Source: Planctopirus limnophila DSM 3776
GTDB taxonomy: Bacteria; Planctomycetota; Planctomycetia; Planctomycetales; Planctomycetaceae
Direction of reading: 5' to 3'
Length of the DNA stretch: 32,000 nt
Assembly: GCF_000092105.1 (NCBI RefSeq)
Contig: NC_014148.1
Coordinates: forward strand, 120,001-152,000
The notes under the pieces were generated by a model. That model did not search any database. It saw nothing but the letters and a program-made list of their open reading frames with translations, and was not told the origin of the DNA. Of this stretch, positions 1 to 11,785 are shown one piece after another. The position numbers were made by a program, and so were the translations under genes. How positions within the stretch are numbered: the stretch's first letter is position 1; each line of letters begins with the position of its first letter.

Positions 1-705
1 GGTGTTCATGGCCTGCATGTGAAATGAAGTCGGAAACTGGCCGGGAATGATCGTGGCCAGCAGGCTGTAGAGGTAAGCCGTACCGACACCCAAGGCAATG
101 AGCGTGAACATATTCGGGTTGCGACTGAGGATCGACTTCCAGGCGCGCTCAAAGAAGGGCCAGCCGCAATAGAAGACGATCGGCGTGGTCAGAAGCAACT
201 GGATCCAGTTCAGCCATGACATATTGGCATGCAGCCACTGCATGGTGGCACTCGAAGGGAGCATGCCCAACATGGCAATGACAAAGACAGGGAGACCCAG
301 AACAACGGCCCAGCGCAAGCGGGATGAAAGCAGCATCCATTCGGGATCGGGCCCTGCTTGAAATGTGGGTTGTGACGGTTCCAGAGCCATGCCGCAAATG
401 GGGCAGCTACCTGGTGCGGATTGGACAACTTCGGGATCCATGGGGCAGATGTATGTTTGACCCGGGGCAGCGGGTGTGGACTGTGCACAATCGTGACGAA
501 TCGCATCGGGGGATAAATAGACTTCCGGATTTGCACGGAACCTGATCAGGCAGGAGCGCGCGCAGAAGTAATAGGTGGTGCCGGCATGTACCAGGGAACC
601 TGAAGCATGGGCTGGATCGACAGACATCCCACACACCGGATCTGTTTCTCGATGCGGTTCTAGAATGGTCAGCAGAGAGGATGGTCTGGAAGGTGGCACA
701 GGCAT
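1..705 (-). CDS. Heavy-metal (probably Cu+) translocating P1B-type ATPase, N-terminal 235 codons only; the gene continues beyond window position 1
   Basis: This ORF is absent from the supplied track because it has no stop inside the window. My own minus-strand translation from the ATG at 705 reads MPVPPSRPSSLLTILEPHRETDPVCGMSVDPAHASGSLVHAGTTYYFCARSCLIRFRANPEVYLSP..GQTYICPMDPEVVQSAPGSCPICGMALEP..LRWAVVLGLPVFVIAMLGML..WIQLLLTTPIVFYCGWPFFERAWKSILSRNPNMFTLIALGVGTAYLYSLLATI. DPVCGM...YYFC..SC is a YHS/TRASH-type metal-binding domain. Y-x-CPM...CPICGM is the short heavy-metal-binding domain seen on Cu pumps. The first TM helices of CopA-like pumps follow. There is an in-frame stop at 787-789, so an upstream GTG or TTG start is also possible. 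Confidence 0.8.
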   Translation of the reverse strand, partial: MPVPPSRPSSLLTILEPHRETDPVCGMSVDPAHASGSLVHAGTTYYFCARSCLIRFRANPEVYLSPDAIRHDCAQSTPAAPGQTYICPMDPEVVQSAPGSCPICGMALEPSQPTFQAGPDPEWMLLSSRLRWAVVLGLPVFVIAMLGMLPSSATMQWLHANMSWLNWIQLLLTTPIVFYCGWPFFERAWKSILSRNPNMFTLIALGVGTAYLYSLLATIIPGQFPTSFHMQAMNT

Positions 706-2510: not shown

Positions 2511-4775
2511 CTATTTGAATGCGGGATCGAATTCTGGATTGGATTCGTTCTCGTTGGCCCCTGGGGCCGGTGGGATGAACGCAGGCAAGTTCCCTGCCGG
2601 CTGAGGCGGAGATGAGAGAACTTTGTCAAAGAGCTGTGTGGCTTCTGGTGAACCGGGGGCATCAATGGCCTGGTCATCATAGAGGACAGAGCCTCCCTCA
2701 ACCGGTGGATAGGTCATCCCCTGCGGTTCATTCAGAGCCGGTGCCAGAGTCTGAATCATCGGGCCTTCGCTGACCTGTGGCGCCAACTGTTTAGGATGAT
2801 CGAACCGGCTGGCCGGGTGAGTACGCAGTTGCCGCTCGAGAGCATCGCAATAAGCTTGTTCTGGCCATGGCCCTTCTTCGAGCGAGATTTCGTTGTAATC
2901 GAACAAGGTTCCTTTTTCGAGCTGGACGTTCTTGATCGACAGCGAGTATTCGATGACGGCCCGGAAGTAGGAAATGTCGGCATCAGCCATCCGACGCTGA
3001 GCTTCGAGCAGCAGGTCAACCGTCGCGTTGTCGGCGTCAAAGGCCGCTTGAACCGCTTCAACCTGCTCTCGTGCAGCCATGCGGCGGTTCAGTGCAGTTT
3101 CGACGATCTGGTAGGAACGATCCACGTCGGCAATGGCGTTGCTCAAGTCGTGGATGACTGATCGTTCCTGCTCGAAAAGTAACGCACGATCTCGGGCCAG
3201 TTGCAATTCCGCATTACGAACGGCGGTATAAGCTTGACGAAATCCTAAAGGCATGGAGAACTCGAGGCCTAACTGCCACTCCTGGAAGTTCCCCGAAGTC
3301 AGGTTTGAATAGGCATCACCAAACTCACCACCTGTTCCGTCTGGCAACAGATCTTTGCCGAATCCACGGAAGCGGTAGCGGGCCATGGCATCGAGTTGTG
3401 GTTTGAGAAAGTTCTTGTTGGCCTGAAGTTCGAGTTCACGTTTGCGAACCTGCCACTTCTGGCGGCGGAGTTCAACTCGTCGTGAAAGAGCTTCACCGAG
3501 AGTTGATTCCCACGAGTAAGAAAGCTTGGCAGCCGACGGTTCGTCGGCAGTTCGAATGAGTCGACCATCGTTAATGGGCATACCAATCAGCAGACGCAGT
3601 CGGCGTTCGCAGACAAAAACCCCGCCTGTCCCGCGGAAGGTCCCCCCGGTACTGCCGTTGTTGGTCCGTGTGCCATCGAGCAAGCGGCCATGCAGTGCGT
3701 TCTGGGCTTCCTCCTGAAAGCGGAAGTACTGCTCACGGGCCTGAGCTTCCTTTTCGGCTTCGCCACCTCGTCGACCTTGCTCGTATAAAGCCCGAATGCG
3801 ACGCCAGGTTTCGAGAGCCGCATCACGGGCGGCGATCTTCGATTCCAGATCACGCCAGGCAAATGACAGATCCCAGTAGCAGTTCTCAACATCACTCACA
3901 TAGTTACGGACACCAACTTCAAAATCAGCCAGTGAGATATCCGAATTGATCCGGGCAATCACCACACCATTGATCAGGCCAGGCTGGGCATTCGGCCCGG
4001 CAATACGATTGAAATCGACCCCGGCGCCTTGCAGCAATGGCTGACGAACTTCACCTTCGTACCAGGTTGTCCACGCGCTGGGGAAGAAGTTCCCGGGTGC
4101 ATTGTTGGCATCGTATTGGGTGTAGTTACGAATGGCAAAATTCGAACCCGTCGCGGCTGTTTTCGAGATCTGAGCCTGATAGACGTTGAAATCCTGAGTA
4201 AGCAGCCGCGTCCCACCACCAAAGAACTGGTTGTTCAATGCGCGGTCGTTCTTCTCCCACATGGCACTGGCTGCCACCTGCGCATCAAATGCACTGAGTG
4301 CGGCTTCGATGCCGAACCTGGGATCCGTCTGTGCAATGGCAGGATCATTCTTGGTACGCACAATTTCGGGAGATCTTAGCACCAATCCGCCCAGATCGCG
4401 GAAAGCCTTGGATTGTGCCAGACCCAGTCGCATAACTTCTTCAAGAGAAAGATCAAGGTACTCTGTCGGTGTTTCGCTGCTGAGCGAGATCGGTGCACTG
4501 GTCGCTTCGAGAATCTGTTCGTCCGAAACCTTTTCGATTTTCGGATACTCGATCTTGCGGCCCATCGCCTCGTAATGCGAGGTATCAATACCAATGTTCG
4601 CAGCGGGAGTGGGCTGGTAGCGGGCGCAGCCTGGGCCAGGCAAAGTGATGATGGCCACCACTACGCTCAACCATCGCCAGCGGAGAATCCGCTCACGCGA
4701 CCACATCCTTGCCGGTCTCCATGAAGTCTTCAATGACTCTTGTTCGTTTGCTTGTCGCGATCTGTGATCAGGCAT
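2511..4775 (-). CDS. TolC-family outer membrane efflux protein (OEP), possibly lipidated, with a Pro-rich C-terminal tail
   Basis: The 754-aa ORF contains LSLEEVMRLGLAQSKAFRDLG near the N-terminus and long coiled-coil-like segments (ARDAALETWRRIRALYEQGR.., AVRNAELQLARDRALLFEQERSVIHDLSNAIADVDRSY, REQVEAVQAAFDADNATVDLLLEAQRRMADADISYFRAVIEYSLSIKNV), typical of the duplicated OEP repeat. The more likely start is the internal MWSRERILRWRWLSVVVAIITLPGPGC at about 4706. Confidence 0.85.
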   Translation of the reverse strand: MPDHRSRQANEQESLKTSWRPARMWSRERILRWRWLSVVVAIITLPGPGCARYQPTPAANIGIDTSHYEAMGRKIEYPKIEKVSDEQILEATSAPISLSSETPTEYLDLSLEEVMRLGLAQSKAFRDLGGLVLRSPEIVRTKNDPAIAQTDPRFGIEAALSAFDAQVAASAMWEKNDRALNNQFFGGGTRLLTQDFNVYQAQISKTAATGSNFAIRNYTQYDANNAPGNFFPSAWTTWYEGEVRQPLLQGAGVDFNRIAGPNAQPGLINGVVIARINSDISLADFEVGVRNYVSDVENCYWDLSFAWRDLESKIAARDAALETWRRIRALYEQGRRGGEAEKEAQAREQYFRFQEEAQNALHGRLLDGTRTNNGSTGGTFRGTGGVFVCERRLRLLIGMPINDGRLIRTADEPSAAKLSYSWESTLGEALSRRVELRRQKWQVRKRELELQANKNFLKPQLDAMARYRFRGFGKDLLPDGTGGEFGDAYSNLTSGNFQEWQLGLEFSMPLGFRQAYTAVRNAELQLARDRALLFEQERSVIHDLSNAIADVDRSYQIVETALNRRMAAREQVEAVQAAFDADNATVDLLLEAQRRMADADISYFRAVIEYSLSIKNVQLEKGTLFDYNEISLEEGPWPEQAYCDALERQLRTHPASRFDHPKQLAPQVSEGPMIQTLAPALNEPQGMTYPPVEGGSVLYDDQAIDAPGSPEATQLFDKVLSSPPQPAGNLPAFIPPAPGANENESNPEFDPAFK

Positions 4776-5291: not shown

Positions 5292-7025
5292 ATGCACGGC
5301 CTGGTATCGATTCTTGCACAACTTGAAGGAGTCCTTTCCGGGACTGCCGGCCTGTTGGCTTTAGCAACTGTCTGCCTGTTCCAGCATGGAATTCATGTGC
5401 TGCAGCGACAACGATCTGACCGGAATTCCGCTCGAATTCTTGGTGAAGTCAAGAGCCTTGAACGCGAGGTCATGCACCTGACTCGTGACAAGATGATCAC
5501 CCGGCTGGAGAACGTGGTTCTCCGCGAAATTCTCACACAGAACGATCCCGAGCGAGGGTACGCCGTTCTTCTCAAGCGATTCATTCCCGATACAGATTCT
5601 GGTTTTGCAGCCATCATTCGTCTGGATCGCAGCAGCGGAACAGTCTTTGAGGCCCGTGGTCTGAGTGACGAATCGCTCGAAGCATTTCATATCGATACAC
5701 ATCATCTGGCGACACTGGCCAGTGGTTCGCCTTTGGTCCTGGAAGACCAGCCTCTGCGGAAAAGCCAGATCTATGCGTCGTTGACACCTTCCGACAAACG
5801 CAAGGCCAGTCGGATTTTCCTGATTCCCGTAGGCGTCGGACAAGAACTCTGCGCTGTTCTGGCAACGACACAGCTATTACCCACAGCAGCTCCACAAGCC
5901 GAGCAGTTGGATCTGAGTACTCGCCTCATGTCCTGTGTGGCAGGTTCACTCAAGCAGCTCTTTACGCTCGAACATCATACCCATCAGTTGCGATCCACCC
6001 GCGAGATGCTCGAATTGCGGTCGATCGCAGACAGCCAGAGCGAGCAGCCACTGCGCATGATTGAACGGTTCATGGTTCGACTGGCGCAGATTACAGGCTC
6101 GGAGCGAGCCAGTCTGTACGTGCTGCCCAAAGAGGGTGCTGCCACCTGCAAAGCATTGATTCGTTGTGGCGTACAATTACCGCCAGGCGTCGAAACACGC
6201 TGGTTTCAGCACGAAGATACACTATCGAGTATGGGTCAGTTGTATGGCCAGGTCACGGTCTTCGATCAACTCCATCTCAAGCGAGTCGGTGTCGATACGC
6301 TCATGCAATCGGCTGTGACAGCGCCGATTCGTCACAAACATCGCTACGCGGGATTGCTTTGCCTCACGCGCCGACAGTCAGCAGCACCACTCCCAGTCGA
6401 TCTGGAATTGATTACCTGGGCGGCAGATGTGCTTTCCGAAACGATCCAGAAGTCGATCAATTTCCTGCAGATGGAACGTCAGGCCAGGCAGGATGGACTG
6501 ACCGATCTGGCCAACCGCCGGACATTCGATCTGCAACTGGCTCGTGAGATTGACAGTGTGCAACAGGGACTGGGGCTCGAATGCTCTCTGCTGTTATGCG
6601 ATCTCGACCGCTTCAAATCAATCAATGATCAGTATGGGCATCAGGCGGGTGATCTCGTTCTCCGTGAAACGGCACAAATTCTGCGCGAGCAAATGGGCAA
6701 GATTCGCTCGGGAGACCGGGCTCTCCTGGCGCGATATGGCGGCGAAGAAATGGCTATTCTGCTTCCCGGCGTGGGAATCACGGGAGCATTACGCATAGCC
6801 GAAGGGATTCGCGCAGCCATCGACTCTCACCCCTTTGCCGTCGAATCGGCATTACTCACGGTCACGATCAGCGTGGGTGTCGCCACCTGTCCGCTCCATG
6901 CCTCTTCACCAGAAGCCTTGATCTCGGCGGCCGACGCTGCCTTGTATGAGGCCAAGTCGGCTGGCCGAAATCGAGTCTGCTGTGCTCAGGAACCAACGGC
7001 CATCTCCGCGACCGGAGTGTCGTGA
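5292..7025 (+). CDS. Diguanylate cyclase (GGDEF domain) with an N-terminal TM segment and GAF-like sensor region
   Basis: The C-terminus reads GLTDLANRRTFDLQLAREI..CSLLLCDLDRFKSINDQYGHQAGDLVLRETAQILREQ..ARYGGEEMAILLPG..TISVGVATCP..LISAADAALYEAKSAGRNRV, which is a canonical GGDEF fold with the active-site variant GGEEM. Confidence 0.9.
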   Translation: MHGLVSILAQLEGVLSGTAGLLALATVCLFQHGIHVLQRQRSDRNSARILGEVKSLEREVMHLTRDKMITRLENVVLREILTQNDPERGYAVLLKRFIPDTDSGFAAIIRLDRSSGTVFEARGLSDESLEAFHIDTHHLATLASGSPLVLEDQPLRKSQIYASLTPSDKRKASRIFLIPVGVGQELCAVLATTQLLPTAAPQAEQLDLSTRLMSCVAGSLKQLFTLEHHTHQLRSTREMLELRSIADSQSEQPLRMIERFMVRLAQITGSERASLYVLPKEGAATCKALIRCGVQLPPGVETRWFQHEDTLSSMGQLYGQVTVFDQLHLKRVGVDTLMQSAVTAPIRHKHRYAGLLCLTRRQSAAPLPVDLELITWAADVLSETIQKSINFLQMERQARQDGLTDLANRRTFDLQLAREIDSVQQGLGLECSLLLCDLDRFKSINDQYGHQAGDLVLRETAQILREQMGKIRSGDRALLARYGGEEMAILLPGVGITGALRIAEGIRAAIDSHPFAVESALLTVTISVGVATCPLHASSPEALISAADAALYEAKSAGRNRVCCAQEPTAISATGVS

Positions 7026-7137: not shown

Positions 7138-8709
7138 TCAAACCCCAGGCTCTCTTTGCTCGCTCGGCTGGCCAATCGCCGCTTTGTTCAGAGCCTTCAA
7201 ATACGCCTGAGCGCTGGCTTCGAGAATATCGGTGCTGACCGCTTTACCATGGTACTTACGGCCGCCGGTAATGAGCTCGATCATCACTTCACCCTGGGCA
7301 TCTTTCCCTTCGGAGACACTGCGCACCTGATAATTGTCAAGTGTTCCCGAGACTCCCATAATGCGTTCAATCGCTTTGCAGACGGCATCCACCGGGCCAT
7401 CGCCAATAGCCGCATCGCAATGCACCTGATGCTGGTCATCATGCAGCTCGACTGTCGCTGTCGGGATTGTGCCCGTCCCGGCAGCAATATGAAACCTCTG
7501 CAATTTCCAGCGATCCGAGGCATTTCGATCCTGATGCTCGATAATCGCAATGATGTCCGCGTCGTAGACCGATTTCTTTTTGTCGGCGAGAATGATGAAT
7601 TCATCAAAGACACGCTGGAACGTTTCATCGTCGAGAGTGTAGCCCAACTCGGCCACTCGACTGCGAAAAGCATGTCGGCCTGAGTGTTTGCCCAACACCA
7701 GATTCTGGCCCACGAAGCCTACGTCTTCAGGACGCATGATTTCGTAAGTCTCACGGTTCTGCAGCATGCCATGCTGATGGATACCCGATTCGTGAGCGAA
7801 GGCGTTCTGGCCGACAATCGCTTTATTGCGCTGGACGATCATGCCCGTCACGTTGCTCACCAGTCGGCTCGCCTGGCAGAGCTTTTGAGTGTTGATCTTC
7901 GTACCGACTTTGTAGTAATCCTGCCGCGTGCGGAGAGCCATAACGATCTCTTCGAGAGCCGCATTTCCGGCCCGCTCACCGAGCCCATTGATCGTACATT
8001 CGACCTGTCGCGCACCGGCTTCAATGGCCGAGAGACTGTTAGCCACTGCCAGTCCAAGATCGTTGTGGCAATGTGCACTGATGACAGCCTGCTGGATATT
8101 GGGCACGTTTTTCTTGAGATAGCTGATCACGTTGAAGTAGTGCGATGGCGTGGCGTAGCCCACGGTATCGGGAATATTGACCGTGGTCGCGCCGTGACGA
8201 ATAGCCGTCTCGACCACCTGTGCGAGAAATTCGAGTTCCGTTCGCGAAGCATCTTCGGGCGAGAACTCAATATCTTCGCAGCGCTCTTTGGCGCGACTGA
8301 CCATCTCGGCGGTACGCTTGAGGATCTCTTCCGTTGCCATTTTGAGTTTGAATTCTCGATGAATGGCACTGGTGGCGAGGAAGAGATGAATCCGCTTGCG
8401 GCGGGCCGCTGAGACCGCATCCGCAGCTCGATCAATATCTTCATTCCGGCAACGAGCGAGGCCGCAGATCGTGGCCTGCTCGCCGAATCTTTCGGCGACC
8501 TTACGTACGGCTTCGAAATCACCCGGACTGGCAATCGGGAAGCCCGCTTCAATGACATCGACGCCGAGATCGACCAGAGCTTTCGCCACTTCGAGCTTTT
8601 CATCGGTGTTCATACTGCAGCCAGGCGACTGCTCACCATCGCGAAGTGTCGTATCAAAGATAATGATCTGGTCAGCAGGTGAAGTCTTTGTGGCAGAAGT
8701 CATTTTCAT
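7138..8709 (-). CDS. leuA: 2-isopropylmalate synthase
   Basis: The 523-aa ORF contains [68 protein letters not shown] and a C-terminal LeuA regulatory domain. The start may be the second ATG (MTSATK, 8703), which has better spacing from GAGGA. Confidence 0.95.
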
Positions 8710-8837
8710 AATCCTCGATTTAGTATTCCAAACTCAGGGATGAAGCTGAGAGAGCTGGAGTCGATCCAGCGTTCCACAGGCATTCACCATTCATCGAACA
8801 GTTGAAGACAGGTTGCGGGAAACCAGAACTGGTATCA

Positions 8838-8849
8838 CCTGCTGGCACC
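8838..8849 (-). promoter_or_regulatory. 12-nt segment in the leuA 5' UTR that is perfectly complementary to the loop and 3' arm of the upstream terminator
   Basis: Plus-strand CCTGCTGGCACC (8838-8849) is the exact reverse complement of GGTGCCAGCAGG (8893-8904). Confidence 0.5.
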
Positions 8850-8881
8850 TGTACCTCACTGCGAGGAAAGAGTCCGGGTAT

Positions 8882-8912
8882 AAAAAAACCCCGGTGCCAG
8901 CAGGCAACGGGG
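8882..8912 (-). terminator. Intrinsic terminator/attenuator hairpin plus U7 tract, 172 nt upstream of the leuA ATG
   Basis: The minus-strand RNA reads CCCCGUUGCC-UGCU-GGCACCGGGG, giving 9 bp with 1 mismatch and a 4-nt loop. It is followed directly by UUUUUUUA. Confidence 0.6.
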
Positions 8913-8935
8913 TCAAAATTCTGGTCATCAATCGA

Positions 8936-9007
8936 CTACAGATTCTCCCCCGTCCTGCGTAGTAGCAGGCTGGAAAATCGTAGTAGATTGAAGTTTTCTG
9001 GATGCAT
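8936..9007 (-). CDS. Candidate leucine leader peptide (23 codons) of a leuA attenuator
   Basis: The ORF is atg cat cca gaa aac ttc aat cta cta cga ttt tcc agc ctg cta cta cgc agg acg ggg gag aat ctg tag, encoding MHPENFNLLRFSSLLLRRTGENL. It has 6 Leu in 23 codons, 4 of them CUA. AAGGA lies 9 nt upstream of the ATG. The stop is 23 nt before the terminator hairpin. Confidence 0.4.
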   Translation of the reverse strand: MHPENFNLLRFSSLLLRRTGENL

Positions 9008-9029
9008 AGGGCTTTGTCCTTATGCCATA

Positions 9030-9058
9030 ACGCTAGAGACTCACCGGACGGAAGTCAA
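9030..9058 (-). promoter_or_regulatory. Putative sigma70-type promoter for the leuA leader (TTGACT - 17 nt - TAGCGT)
   Basis: On the minus strand TTGACT occupies 9058->9053 and TAGCGT occupies 9035->9030, with exactly 17 nt between them. This predicts a TSS about 16 nt upstream of the leader ATG. The call rests on pattern match only, and planctomycete promoter consensus is poorly defined. Confidence 0.3.
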
Positions 9059-9136
9059 GGGTTGGGTGTTGGGTGTTGGGTGTTGGGTGTTGGGTGTTGG
9101 GTGTTGGGTGTTGGGTGTTGGGTGTTGGGTGTTGGG
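9059..9136. repeat. Perfect tandem heptamer array (GGGTGTT)x10 flanked by GGGTT and GGG, giving 12 G3 tracts
   Basis: I counted copies directly: 9064-9133 holds ten exact GGGTGTT units, 9059-9063 is GGGTT and 9134-9136 is GGG. This array explains the artefactual GWVLGVGCWVLGVGC ORF at 8802..9185. Confidence 0.95.
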
Positions 9137-9249
9137 ATGGACACGGGAGGTTGAGTCTGGGTTCGGGGAACTGACATTCCATTGACCGCAGCTCAACCAA
9201 TGACAGTCCCATCTTGAAAACTGTTGGGCGACTGCCCGTTGGTCTGATT

Positions 9250-9282
9250 CAAATACCGAACATCAAATACCCAACACCCACC
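9250..9282. repeat. AC-rich arm complementary to the heptamer array, directly after the stop of the 832-aa gene
   Basis: The arm is CAAATACCGAACATCAAATACCCAACACCCACC. Its reverse complement GGTGGGTGTTGGGTATTTGATGTTCGGTATTTG can pair with the (GGGTGTT)n complement. It contains the 15-mer CAAATACCCAACACC (9264-9278), identical to 7108-7122. Confidence 0.65.
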
Positions 9283-9286
9283 TCTC

Positions 9287-11785
9287 TCATTCCCCATACA
9301 CCAGCCAGGTGGTGAACTTGCCATTTTGTGTCGCACGGGCGCGAATCCAGTAACCCACTGTGTCATCCGGGATCTGCTCCTCGACGGCTTTGCCCGCAGG
9401 AACAGCGATGGTCTTCCACTCGGTCCAGAGACCTGTTCCCGTCACATCGATTTCAATTGTCACATTCACAGCCTCCGCCTGATCATGCGAGAGCTCAACA
9501 CGCCGGTGGCGATAGCCCGTCAGCAGATAGGGATCACTGGGAACGTTCGCCGTCACCTGGCTGTTTTTCCATGGGCCGCCACTTCCTTTCGGTTGCCCCA
9601 AAGACCAGAGATCATCAACAGCACCCACCCACAGAGCACAAGCTCCATCCGTCGAGCGAACGACATGTGGACCGGCCGCTGCGTCATCTGCGACACCCGA
9701 AAGCACCAGCAAACCTCGATGACTTGCGTAGTCATCAATACTGTAAGGGTGCGTGGTCACGGGCCGAATCTTCGCCATTCCACTCGCGTTTTCAGCCGGC
9801 AGTTCAAAGAACGTCTGCCCGGCATGGAACAAGTCACGCTCCGTACAGACTTCCCGGCACACGCGCTGCGGGCCATAGCTACCCGAAGCCAGAGGTGCCT
9901 GCCAATCTCCCACAGGCAATCGCCAGCGGCCCGATGCATCCTCATACACAATCGATGCTTCATCCCGGCTGATGACATTCTGCGGAATGGCGACGTTTTT
10001 TGATGTCCAGGCCATACCGTCGGCATCATCGACTTTGGCCAGTGTGAGTGCACCAGTCTTTAGATCTGTTGTCAGATCGTAGCAGCCCGTCTGGCCGTTC
10101 GAGGTCCTGGCCACATACCGCAAAGAGCGAAAGTTCCCGCCGCGTGAATGAATCACACCACCCGACCGCTTCTCTGAACCAGCCAGCGATAACCCTTGAG
10201 CAAGATCACTCACGTTTTTTCGAGACTCTGCGGGAGGGTTCGATGAGCCAAAAGTTGCTGTCACATTTTCGATGGGCTGATCGGAAACCAGTCGGATCCA
10301 AACTCCCTGGAGATCGCGCGGCAGGCTCTCCCAGATCGTCGAGCGACCATTGGACGTCAAGGTTTTGTAAGTCGTCCATTCACCAGTTCCCGCTTTGTCG
10401 ACTTCCAGTCGAATGCTCGCCTGCAGAGGCTGCGGGCTGTGAATGACCAGTTGCCGATGGGTATAACCATCGATCAGATAGGGGTCGCTGGGTTGATTGG
10501 CCACGACGCTTTCATTGAGCCAGACCGAGCCTCGACCAATAACGGGCCCCAATTGATCAAGCTGCTCTCGATCAAGAAACCACAGGTTGGAGTGCGACTG
10601 ACCGGGTCCGGCAATTTCTCCCTTGGCCTTGCGCTTATTGAGAAACTCACTCTTTGCCGTGTCGTCGCATCCCAGAACGATCTTGTCGTTCCATGGGCAG
10701 AAGTCGCCCACGACCTTGAGATAATTGCTGCGCGGAGCAATGCCAGCCGAGTTACCCGGCGAGAATGTTCTGGGGAACTTCCAGAAATTTCCATGCATCG
10801 TGGCGAGCAGACTCTCTTCACCAATATCGCGAATACGCGGCCACTCGGTATTCCAGCCATGGGCTCCATCATAGCTGTGCGAAGCTTTAGGCAAGCGATA
10901 GGTGTGCCACTGACCTTTCTCACAGACCATGAGCAGAAGTGACTTAGCATCCCAGCCAAGACTCCAGATGGGTTGTGTCGAATTCGGATCATTGGAAACG
11001 ACCCCCGAGGGGCCGGTAACTTCGGTGAATTGATTACGCCGAATCAACTGCCAGTCAGTACCGGCCACACCATCAAAATACCCCAATGCTCCACTGGGAA
11101 CCGTGGGATCTTTGACGACGCGCGGATCGTGATCGCCGTTGTTGGCGTAAACGACAATCCCCTGCGAAGTGAATAAACCTTTGCCGTGATATCCAGGCAG
11201 TTTGGATGAGATGGCTTTCGAGAGATCAATGTCCAACTGCTCGGGCTTGAAGTTGTTGCCATCCCGGATCAGGCAGTTAATGTCGAGCGTCTTCAGATCG
11301 ACTTCGTAGAGCCCTTCTTCCATCGTCGCGAAATAGACTTTGGTTTGTGGACTCGACAGGTGCGTCGCATTCCCGGTCAGGCGGCCCGGCATCTTGTTGC
11401 GGGGGATCGTCCGTACTTTTCCATCAGCGTCGATCACATGGCTGCCAATGACGAGTTGATTGGTGGCTGCATGGATCATCCGATTGGCATTGGTGCCACC
11501 CACGCTTTCGGGCCGAACGATCTGCTGCAGTTCAGGCGTGACTTCATACAGTTTGTCGGATGATCTTAATGGCAGATGCGGGCCATAGGTAATGACCCAG
11601 AGCTTGCCACCAAACGGCACGACGGCTCCAGTACCACATTCTCCTTCGTCGTTGAACATCGCCAGGTGCGGATAGATCCCCGAGATCGGGGGTGCGACCT
11701 GCGGTCCTTGAGCCTTCGCATCACTTGTCAGAGCCCATAGCGAGAGCAGGCAAGCGGCGAACGTCCAGCGAGTACTGTCGATCAT
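9287..11785 (-). CDS. Secreted hypothetical protein (832 aa) with an internally duplicated ~95-aa domain
   Basis: The signal peptide is MIDSTRWTFAACLLSLWALTSDAKAQ. The long ORF is uninterrupted. Two related modules are present, GSVWLNESVVANQPSDPYLIDGYTHRQL...GTGEWTTYKTL...GVWIRL and GGPWKNSQVTANVPSDPYLLTGYRHRRV...GTGLWTEWKTI...GYWIRA. I do not recognise a named family. Confidence 0.85.
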   Translation of the reverse strand: MIDSTRWTFAACLLSLWALTSDAKAQGPQVAPPISGIYPHLAMFNDEGECGTGAVVPFGGKLWVITYGPHLPLRSSDKLYEVTPELQQIVRPESVGGTNANRMIHAATNQLVIGSHVIDADGKVRTIPRNKMPGRLTGNATHLSSPQTKVYFATMEEGLYEVDLKTLDINCLIRDGNNFKPEQLDIDLSKAISSKLPGYHGKGLFTSQGIVVYANNGDHDPRVVKDPTVPSGALGYFDGVAGTDWQLIRRNQFTEVTGPSGVVSNDPNSTQPIWSLGWDAKSLLLMVCEKGQWHTYRLPKASHSYDGAHGWNTEWPRIRDIGEESLLATMHGNFWKFPRTFSPGNSAGIAPRSNYLKVVGDFCPWNDKIVLGCDDTAKSEFLNKRKAKGEIAGPGQSHSNLWFLDREQLDQLGPVIGRGSVWLNESVVANQPSDPYLIDGYTHRQLVIHSPQPLQASIRLEVDKAGTGEWTTYKTLTSNGRSTIWESLPRDLQGVWIRLVSDQPIENVTATFGSSNPPAESRKNVSDLAQGLSLAGSEKRSGGVIHSRGGNFRSLRYVARTSNGQTGCYDLTTDLKTGALTLAKVDDADGMAWTSKNVAIPQNVISRDEASIVYEDASGRWRLPVGDWQAPLASGSYGPQRVCREVCTERDLFHAGQTFFELPAENASGMAKIRPVTTHPYSIDDYASHRGLLVLSGVADDAAAGPHVVRSTDGACALWVGAVDDLWSLGQPKGSGGPWKNSQVTANVPSDPYLLTGYRHRRVELSHDQAEAVNVTIEIDVTGTGLWTEWKTIAVPAGKAVEEQIPDDTVGYWIRARATQNGKFTTWLVYGE

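Follow-up and report, generated by a model that had tools for sequence, protein, structure and literature searches.

A putative leucine-responsive leader peptide attenuator upstream of leuA in Planctopirus limnophila and its relatives

The leuA gene of Planctopirus limnophila DSM 3776 is preceded by an element that, judging from sequence comparison and folding models, is very probably a leucine-responsive, ribosome-mediated leader peptide attenuator of transcription. It lies on the minus strand of a 32,000-nucleotide (nt) stretch of contig NC_014148.1 (positions 120,001 to 152,000), hereafter the window. Coordinates are window positions, and those of the attenuator elements are written 5' to 3', from high to low numbers. 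An earlier note made from the sequence alone had proposed a leader open reading frame (ORF) containing leucine codons and mutually exclusive RNA pairings that control leuA. Conservation among relatives, covariation, folding energies and the promoter all point to such an arrangement. Since the downstream gene encodes LeuA, the amino acid that would be sensed matches the pathway.

Results

Organization and folding of the leader

A promoter-like pair, TTGACT (9058–9053) and TAGCGT (9035–9030), is separated by 17 nt and followed by a Shine-Dalgarno-like AAGGA (9021–9017) located 9 nt 5' of the leader AUG. The leader ORF, MHPENFNLLRFSSLLLRRTGENL*, occupies 9007–8936 and consists of 23 codons and a UAG stop codon. 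It is a translatable short ORF past a promoter and upstream of a structural gene, and its translation is predicted. Six of the 23 codons specify leucine. They form two clusters, CUA CUA at codons 8–9 (8986–8981) and CUG CUA CUA at codons 14–16 (8968–8960), and the last is codon 23, CUG. Segment 1, CCUGC (8969–8965), is overlapped by the second cluster. Segment 2, GCAGGACGGGG (8958–8948), is the 5' strand of the predicted antiterminator, segment 3, CCCCGUUGCCUGC (8912–8900), is shared between the antiterminator 3' strand and the terminator 5' arm, and segment 4, GGCACCGGGG (8898–8889), is the terminator 3' arm, after which comes U7 (8888–8882). All of these parts had been described in the earlier note and are present at these positions.

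The 156-nt leader folds at −58.2 kcal/mol, compared with −36.5 ± 3.7 kcal/mol for shuffled sequences (z = −5.8). An intrinsic terminator, ACCCCG-U-UGCC / UGCU loop / GGCA-C-CGGGGU followed by U7 (8913–8882), lies between the leader ORF and leuA. At −16.4 to −19.9 kcal/mol it is the strongest combination of hairpin and T-run in the entire window. A simple terminator scan of this region of the window reported nothing at the attenuator because the stem has a 1 × 1 internal loop.

Both the minimum free energy and the centroid structure contain a 64-nt composite hairpin (8991–8928) that folds at −29.4 kcal/mol on its own and is the predicted anti-antiterminator. The helices UCAAUC/GAUUGA, ACUAC/GUAGU and GAUUUUCC/GGAGAAUC enclose an inner CCUGC/GCAGG hairpin. 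Leucine codons 8–9 lie within the 5' arm of the composite hairpin, while the final two G's of the G-run, the closing codons of the ORF and the stop codon all fall in its 3' arm. The pairing of segments 1 and 2 had been described as a 5-bp hairpin. The CCUGC/GCAGG helix is indeed present, but it contributes only −8.2 kcal/mol and the functional element is predicted to be the 64-nt hairpin.

When the region from segment 2 to segment 3 was folded alone, it adopted the full 2:3 helix at −27.2 kcal/mol. The fold comparison proposed in the earlier note therefore shows a 2:3 helix that is competitive with the terminator (−27.2 versus −19.9 kcal/mol). Folds masked by a ribosome gave a core of 6–7 bp in which 8953–8948 or 8954–8948 pairs with 8912–8907 or 8912–8906. 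The 5' strand of this computed antiterminator core is (G)ACGGGG (8954–8948) and its partner is CCCCGU. For the full transcript without a ribosome, the terminator state (−52.3 kcal/mol) was favored over a forced 2:3 state (−38.6 kcal/mol) by about 14 kcal/mol. The four-segment logic is plainer in the closest relatives than in the window. There the leucine codons themselves (e.g. CUCCUCGGCCU) pair with AGGUCCGGGGA just past the stop codon, and GCGAGGUCCGGGG can then pair with CCCCAAGGCCUCGC, which comprises the terminator 5' arm and loop.

A 127-amino-acid ORF with a TTG start (384 nt, 8802–9185, plus strand) runs antisense to the whole leader, its promoter and an adjoining heptamer repeat. Given the conserved minus-strand element this ORF is almost certainly spurious, and it could mislead gene callers.

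Conservation of the leader upstream of leuA

The regions upstream of leuA were examined in two sets of loci. A scan of one genome per species yielded 80 leuA loci with LeuA identities of 62–77%, nearly all of which are labelled Planctomycetota/Planctomycetaceae. This genome set includes Schlesneria, Planctomicrobium, Thalassoglobus, Maioricimonas, Fuerstiella, one Bythopirellula and one member of the Thermoguttaceae. It represents the closest relatives; the leuA regions of Gemmata, Isosphaera and the anammox bacteria lie outside it. A second, independent set consisted of 80 metagenome leuA loci.

An ORF of 12–29 codons with an LLL or LLLL run, and a run of T5–9 about 50–70 nt past the leader stop codon, were found in almost every upstream region of the genome set. 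For enumeration, the ORF was required to begin with ATG, to encode 8–35 amino acids and to contain at least 3 leucines in 5 residues, and a hairpin of −8 kcal/mol or lower with a T5 run had to occur within 80 nt of its stop codon. The combined pattern, with its clustered cognate codons in LLL or LLLL runs, was present in 59/74 genome loci, 0/74 of their reverse complements and 1/370 dinucleotide shuffles. Among the metagenome loci it was present in 44/62, and in 0/62 reverse complements. The leader peptides of both sets have nothing in common but their leucine runs and vary in length from 12 to 29 amino acids. The leader ATG is invariant in an alignment of 19 sequences made with MAFFT (A1). 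Among the relatives the leucine runs are preserved via synonymous codon changes while the remaining peptide drifts.

A covariance model, R1, was built from 19 sequences. It returned one full-length match on the leuA strand just 5' of leuA in approximately 77/80 genome loci, including the 15 loci missed by the simple pattern. More than 50/80 metagenome loci had a single full-length match just upstream of leuA, down to about 60% LeuA identity, bringing the total to more than 130 loci. Cultured carriers include Schlesneria sp. T3-172 (L029, 117 bits), Thalassoglobus neptunius KOR42 (L036), Maioricimonas sp. JC845 (L067) and Planctomicrobium sp. SH527 (L027). The sole match in the window is 8883–9010 on the minus strand, and no other attenuator-like unit, for any amino acid, was found across the whole window.

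In 64 loci the nearest upstream ORFs formed 57 clusters with no relationship to one another, and 33 of these ORFs were encoded on the opposite strand. The genes that flank leuA in the window adjoin it in 0/80 loci, while the positive control, leuA itself, was recovered in 80/80. By this sequence comparison it is leuA, rather than the gene upstream, to which the element is linked. The earlier note had asked whether an alignment of leuA-upstream regions would reveal a conserved small ORF, leucine codons and compensatory changes, and all three are conserved.

Covariation of the predicted helices

Base pairing was assessed in alignment A1 and in a model-fitted alignment of 84 sequences (A4). The antiterminator was taken from A1 since the segment 2 region forms unaligned insert columns in A4. 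Within A1 the terminator helix was paired in 99% of cells with 7/11 pairs changed on both sides, the 1:2 helix in 79% with 5/10 pairs changed, and the antiterminator core in 90% with 4/7 pairs changed. The A4 counts are biased toward the structure by the fitting: terminator and 1:2 helices together were 90% paired with 19/21 pairs changed on both sides. Across relatives the terminator was 98–99% paired (10/11 pairs changed on both sides in A4) and the 1:2 helix, which includes the leucine codons, was 78–89% paired (9/10 pairs changed, 84 sequences). These values exceed shuffled and slid controls, and for the terminator and 1:2 helices 0/500 shuffles reached the observed value.

The antiterminator was also examined by an alignment-free permutation. 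The 3' part of the leader paired with its own terminator arm at a mean of −13.2 kcal/mol, compared with −12.0 kcal/mol for the arms of other loci, and the cognate mean was reached in 0/5000 permutations. As judged from these comparisons, all three predicted helices carry compensatory changes. The antiterminator, up to GCAGGACGGGG:CCCCGUUGCCUGC, is mutually exclusive with the terminator, and its covariation support is moderate.

Leucine codon usage

Enterobacterial leuL contains the codons CUA CUA CUA CUC, and rare codons were shown to matter there. CUA accounts for 17.7% (69/389) of the leucine codons in the leaders of the genome loci but for 0.1% (2/1941) in the adjacent leuA genes. The corresponding values for the metagenome loci are 15.3% and 1.1%. 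Within the window 4/6 leucine codons of the leader are CUA, compared with 4/184 in three long ORFs. The rarest leucine codon is thus enriched about 15- to 170-fold in leaders relative to leuA, a bias that matches the rare-codon logic of leuL in E. coli and Salmonella.

Modelled ribosome positions

The ribosome was modelled as a 28-nt unpaired mask extending from −15 to +12 nt. With free RNA, with the ribosome at early codons, and from codon 16 to the stop codon, the equilibrium probability of the terminator in the window was about 0.99. The prediction that a ribosome at the stop codon allows termination is therefore borne out in this model. With the A site at codon 8 the probability fell to 0.63, at codon 9 to 0.21 and at codons 10–13 to about 0.01, before rising to 0.41 at codon 14. 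The predicted anti-antiterminator thus overlaps the regulatory codons, and masking A-site codons 8–14 switches the fold. The antitermination window is bracketed by the two leucine clusters. Stalling at codons 8–9 had been predicted to mask segment 1 and free segment 2. In the mask model segment 2 is freed, but it is the 5' arm of the long hairpin that is masked and not CCUGC, which a 28-nt footprint covers solely at codons 14–15.

A co-transcriptional model, in which the transcript was ended at the terminator loop, was used in place of equilibrium masks for the relatives. For the window, stalls at codons 14 and 15 led to the antiterminator and codon 16 to the terminator. Over 59 loci, the median upstream capture of the terminator 5' arm was 0.87 with the ribosome on leucine codons and 0.48 at the stop codon, and it dropped by more than 0.3 between these positions in 42/59 loci. 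The stop codon and the antiterminator strand are separated by less than one ribosome footprint.

The proposed mechanism begins with transcription starting about 16 nt before the 23-codon ORF. When leucine is plentiful the ribosome would reach the UAG codon and cover the G-rich antiterminator strand; with no ribosome, the 8991–8928 hairpin would sequester that strand. Both cases would allow the CCCCG..CGGGG hairpin and U7 to form, and RNA polymerase would stop 172 nt before leuA. When charged tRNA-Leu is scarce the ribosome would stall at the rare CUA/CUG codons 8–9 and 14–15 and mask the 5' arm of the long hairpin. The freed ACGGGG, extendable to GCAGGACGGGG, could then pair with CCCCGU(UGCCUGC). 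With the terminator 5' arm occupied in this way, polymerase would read through into leuA.

Promoter and comparison with a near-identical strain

The earlier note had proposed TTGACT and TAGCGT as the leader promoter. Of 73 related loci, 63 have a motif of the form TTGACN-16..18-TANNNT no more than 120 nt upstream of the leader ATG, compared with 0/73 of the reverse complements, which sustains the proposal. The −35 hexamer usually starts 52–60 nt before the leader ATG in relatives and 51 nt before it in the window. The conserved motif usually places the transcription start site about 20 nt before the leader AUG in relatives, and the start in the window would lie near 9023. TAGCGT was skipped by a consensus promoter scan because it matches the −10 consensus at only 3/6 positions; the positional conservation of TANNNT in relatives supports it.

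Metagenome contig L081 derives from a near-identical strain whose LeuA is 99% identical to that of the window. Over the 126 nt from the AUG to U7, 2 substitutions separate the two sequences. A change of UUU (Phe11) to CUU creates an extra leucine codon, and the other is a synonymous GAG to GAA change that converts a U·G pair to U·A in the long hairpin. Segments 1–4 are identical. Just 5' of the AUG there are 6 substitutions in about 11 nt, yet AAGGA is retained.

A perfect heptamer microsatellite (9061–9136, minus-strand unit ACCCAAC/CACCCAA) ends 2 nt 5' of the −35 hexamer. It has 10.9 copies, a Tandem Repeats Finder (TRF) score of 152 and 100% matches. L081 has about 3 copies, a difference of 56 nt. 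The repeat is absent from all other leuA loci and no further run occurs in the window. It might modulate the promoter context or reflect neutral slippage.

Comparison with known leader elements

Several other phyla have known leucine attenuators of leuA or of leu operons. The mechanism proposed here is therefore familiar and will not surprise specialists; what is new is its uncatalogued occurrence in this phylum. A cmscan search of 8500–9400 with Rfam 15 (E ≤ 10) returned only three unrelated sub-threshold matches, and 15 related loci gave no leader-family match at the gathering score. Specifically, the Leu_leader family RF00512 had no match in the window (E ≤ 10) or in the 15 relatives (gathering threshold). 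The T-box model likewise matched neither the window nor the 15 relatives, and the signature of a translated ORF is present instead. No description of a planctomycete leuA attenuator was found in the literature, though one cross-phylum survey from 2010 lay outside the search and an earlier in-silico prediction is possible. The suggestion that the element is uncatalogued for planctomycetes thus agrees with both Rfam 15 and the searchable literature.

The earlier note had recognized the layout of enterobacterial amino acid attenuators. Four-segment pairings and a logic in which stalling leads to read-through are also predicted here by sequence and folding models. Like leuL (RF00512), the planctomycete leader has a short ORF with clustered leucine codons, including rare CUA, directly upstream of leuA. 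There is no detectable homology, and the element is functionally leuL-like without being a member of RF00512. It has 23 codons and two leucine clusters, whereas leuL has 28 codons and a single run of four. Furthermore, leuA stands alone here as a monocistronic gene instead of belonging to leuABCD, and the anti-antiterminator is a 64-nt hairpin that includes the stop codon.

Attenuation of leu operons has been described as widespread (PMC13434334). The Streptococcus leuA leader was discovered with Term-seq and PASIFIC (Millman et al. 2017; PMC5314783). It resembles the present element in having a lineage-specific, leucine-rich upstream ORF (uORF) that overlaps an anti-antiterminator, and a terminator/antiterminator switch 5' of leuA (PMC5314783). 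It belongs to another phylum, differs in sequence and has Term-seq support, whereas the planctomycete element is known from sequence alone.

The actinobacterial LEU element (Seliverstov et al. 2005; PMC1262725) also lies upstream of leuA. It is a pseudoknot whose base stem pairs leucine codons with the leuA Shine-Dalgarno box, and it has no terminator (PMC1262725). Both elements have a uORF with a leucine codon run 5' of a stand-alone leuA and phylum-wide conservation. The planctomycete element, unlike LEU, has a canonical terminator and U-tract far from the Shine-Dalgarno box, which places it outside the LEU group.

Attenuator motifs with uORFs also precede other branched-chain amino acid genes, as in ilvB-II (Corynebacterium) and ilvB-OMG (PMC10272879), and S. 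aureus ilv-leu has a leucine-rich attenuator peptide (PMC5794164). These share an in-frame start and stop, a peptide rich in cognate residues and a terminator stem followed by U's with the planctomycete leader. They control ilvB or ilv-leu operons in other lineages and sense mixed Ile/Leu/Val codons, whereas pure leucine runs are found here. In Firmicutes, the T-box leaders of ilv-leu and of aminoacyl-tRNA synthetase genes likewise sense tRNA charging through a terminator/antiterminator switch. They bind uncharged tRNA directly, without a translated ORF.

Discussion

Weighing the attenuator against other explanations

Several observations weigh against classical attenuation. A Shine-Dalgarno-like motif was found in only 19/59 leaders. 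Codons 15–16, two of the three in the second leucine cluster, reach or pass the 3' limit of the antitermination window in the model, depending on the footprint. Many relatives retain an equilibrium terminator probability above 0.9 at any ribosome position; since the terminator is too stable at equilibrium in these loci, the switch must be kinetic. Kinetic switching is normal for attenuators and is assumed here. In about one-third of relatives the free RNA already favors the antiterminator, and the anti-antiterminator is absent or weak. The covariation evidence has its own weaknesses, as A4 was fitted to the model and the antiterminator covariation is modest with a structure derived from one A1 member. 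Caution also comes from the LEU element of S. coelicolor, in which leucine codon mutations deviated from the prediction of classical attenuation (PMC1262725).

The loci in which free RNA favors the antiterminator include L020, L021, L022, L041, L043 and L047. These relatives, about one-third of those modelled, may be three-segment variants in which segment 2 is masked by the terminating ribosome itself. Untranslated leaders of this type would read through, the opposite of the 'superattenuation' of E. coli.

The leader RNA could regulate leuA by a non-classical route, such as binding of a protein or other factor, termination assisted by Rho or another factor, or a small RNA (sRNA) or peptide acting in trans. 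We consider this unlikely, though it is the strongest of the rival readings. The LEU element illustrates that a uORF with leucine codons is no proof of classical attenuation, which its authors considered unlikely (PMC1262725). Some sRNAs and peptides that derive from attenuators do function in trans, e.g. rnTrpL/peTrpL in Sinorhizobium, and the equilibrium models of many relatives never lose the terminator. Conversely, a canonical hairpin and U7 located 172 nt before leuA differ from the arrangement in LEU, and synonymous changes keep the leucine runs intact in peptides that otherwise drift. The 15- to 170-fold enrichment of the rarest leucine codon is hard to explain without ribosome stalling, and the stop codon is within one footprint of the antiterminator strand.

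Were the small ORF a functional hydrophobic micropeptide and the hairpin merely its terminator, leucine richness would follow from peptide function, and the conserved position of the leucine-rich ORF would be expected. This is very improbable, for the sequences share only their leucine runs and range from 12 to 29 amino acids, and the use of the rarest leucine codons is the opposite of what is expected for an expressed product. Moreover the ORF is invariably tied to leuA and the alternative pairings overlap its codons. Even less credible is a chance ORF beside an ordinary terminator of the upstream gene (9287–11785). That gene shares the strand of the leader and must be terminated at some point. 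Nevertheless, the pattern is kept 5' of leuA in more than 100 loci with unrelated upstream genes, about half of them on the opposite strand, 0/136 reverse complements and 1/370 shuffles contain it, and the upstream gene is separated from the leader by a conserved promoter. The evidence from upstream neighbors, controls and promoter effectively refutes the hairpin as a terminator of the upstream gene. Leader peptide attenuation of leuA is therefore the explanation we prefer.

Leaders linked to tRNA-Leu(UAA) in a sister clade

A more distant Pirellulales-like clade (Bythopirellula, Thermoguttaceae and metagenome contigs; LeuA 59–65% identical) has a tRNA-Leu(UAA) gene 3' of leuA on the same strand. 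The gap between them was 13–117 nt in 8/9 loci, and those gaps contain no T5 run. The tRNA genes are located at L079:4181–4267, L080:4164–4248, L125:2658–2747 and 2786–2871, L130:1573–1657, L143:3107–3192, L148:3112–3197, L149:3060–3145, L150:3766–3852 and L156:2127–2213. tRNA-Leu(UAA) genes of this clade constitute 11/15 of the tRNAs found across all 160 loci. UUA represents 14/49 leucine codons in the tRNA-linked leaders and about 1% in leuA. A UUA codon was present in 8/8 tRNA-linked loci that have a leader and in 5/106 others (Fisher p = 2e-9, kinship ignored). This suggests that the attenuator of this clade senses a specific isoacceptor, tRNA-Leu(UAA), and may co-express it with leuA.

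Implications

An attenuator of this kind works only with a ribosome within a few dozen nt of RNA polymerase, so the strong conservation of the element speaks indirectly for transcription-translation coupling in the Planctomycetaceae and in Pirellulales-like lineages. A separation of transcription from translation in space was once suggested for Gemmata (summarized in PMC5394234). Coupling could be monitored genetically with the element as a reporter. The regulation of genes has hardly been explored in Planctomycetota, and the leader offers a concrete cis-regulatory case with a ready search model, R1; it would be the first well-supported cis-regulatory RNA of the leader peptide type for the phylum. 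The extreme preference for the rarest leucine codon (CUA, or UUA in the sister clade) would make a clean natural example of isoacceptor-specific sensing. The leader ORF, promoter and attenuator merit adding to the annotation upstream of leuA.

It is possible, though on balance doubtful, that all of these features belong together: an uncatalogued, Planctomycetia-wide attenuator family (Planctomycetaceae and Pirellulales-like) that demonstrates coupling, is tuned to a single rare isoacceptor (CUA, with UUA in the sister clade) and co-induces leuA with a tRNA. If so, the existence of the family would prove from genomes that translation keeps close behind RNA polymerase in this phylum. Read-through would co-induce leuA and tRNA-Leu(UAA), so that the tRNA gene would be autoregulated by its own charging level.

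leuA and neighboring genes

The downstream gene (8709–7138, minus strand) had been called leuA, and the Pfam domains and NCBIfam equivalog agree on 2-isopropylmalate synthase. Its product contains HMGL-like, HCS_D2 and LeuA_dimer (LeuA allosteric) domains and scores 781 bits against NF002086, for which the cut-off is 532. A GGDEF gene on the plus strand (5292–7025; ORF map and Pfam) is convergent with leuA, and leuA is therefore monocistronic here.

A spacer of 172 nt (8710–8881, minus strand) separates the U-tract from the start of leuA. No second regulatory element was found in it by folding, Rfam or comparison with L081. It contains small hairpins, e.g. CCUCGCAGUGAGG and GCUGGAUCGACUCCAGC, and an Rfam YrlA match that is sub-threshold only (17.8 bits versus a gathering score of 69). 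Relative to L081 it has 6 changed positions, with no clear compensation among them.

Directly upstream of the leader is the 832-amino-acid ORF (9287–11785, minus strand), for which Pfam gave no domain at E ≤ 0.001 and which has a homologue beside leuA in 0/80 related genome loci. Planctomicrobium sp. SH527 (locus L027) has a class A bacterial RNase P RNA gene (4134–4539, 297 bits) about 110 nt 3' of leuA on the same strand.

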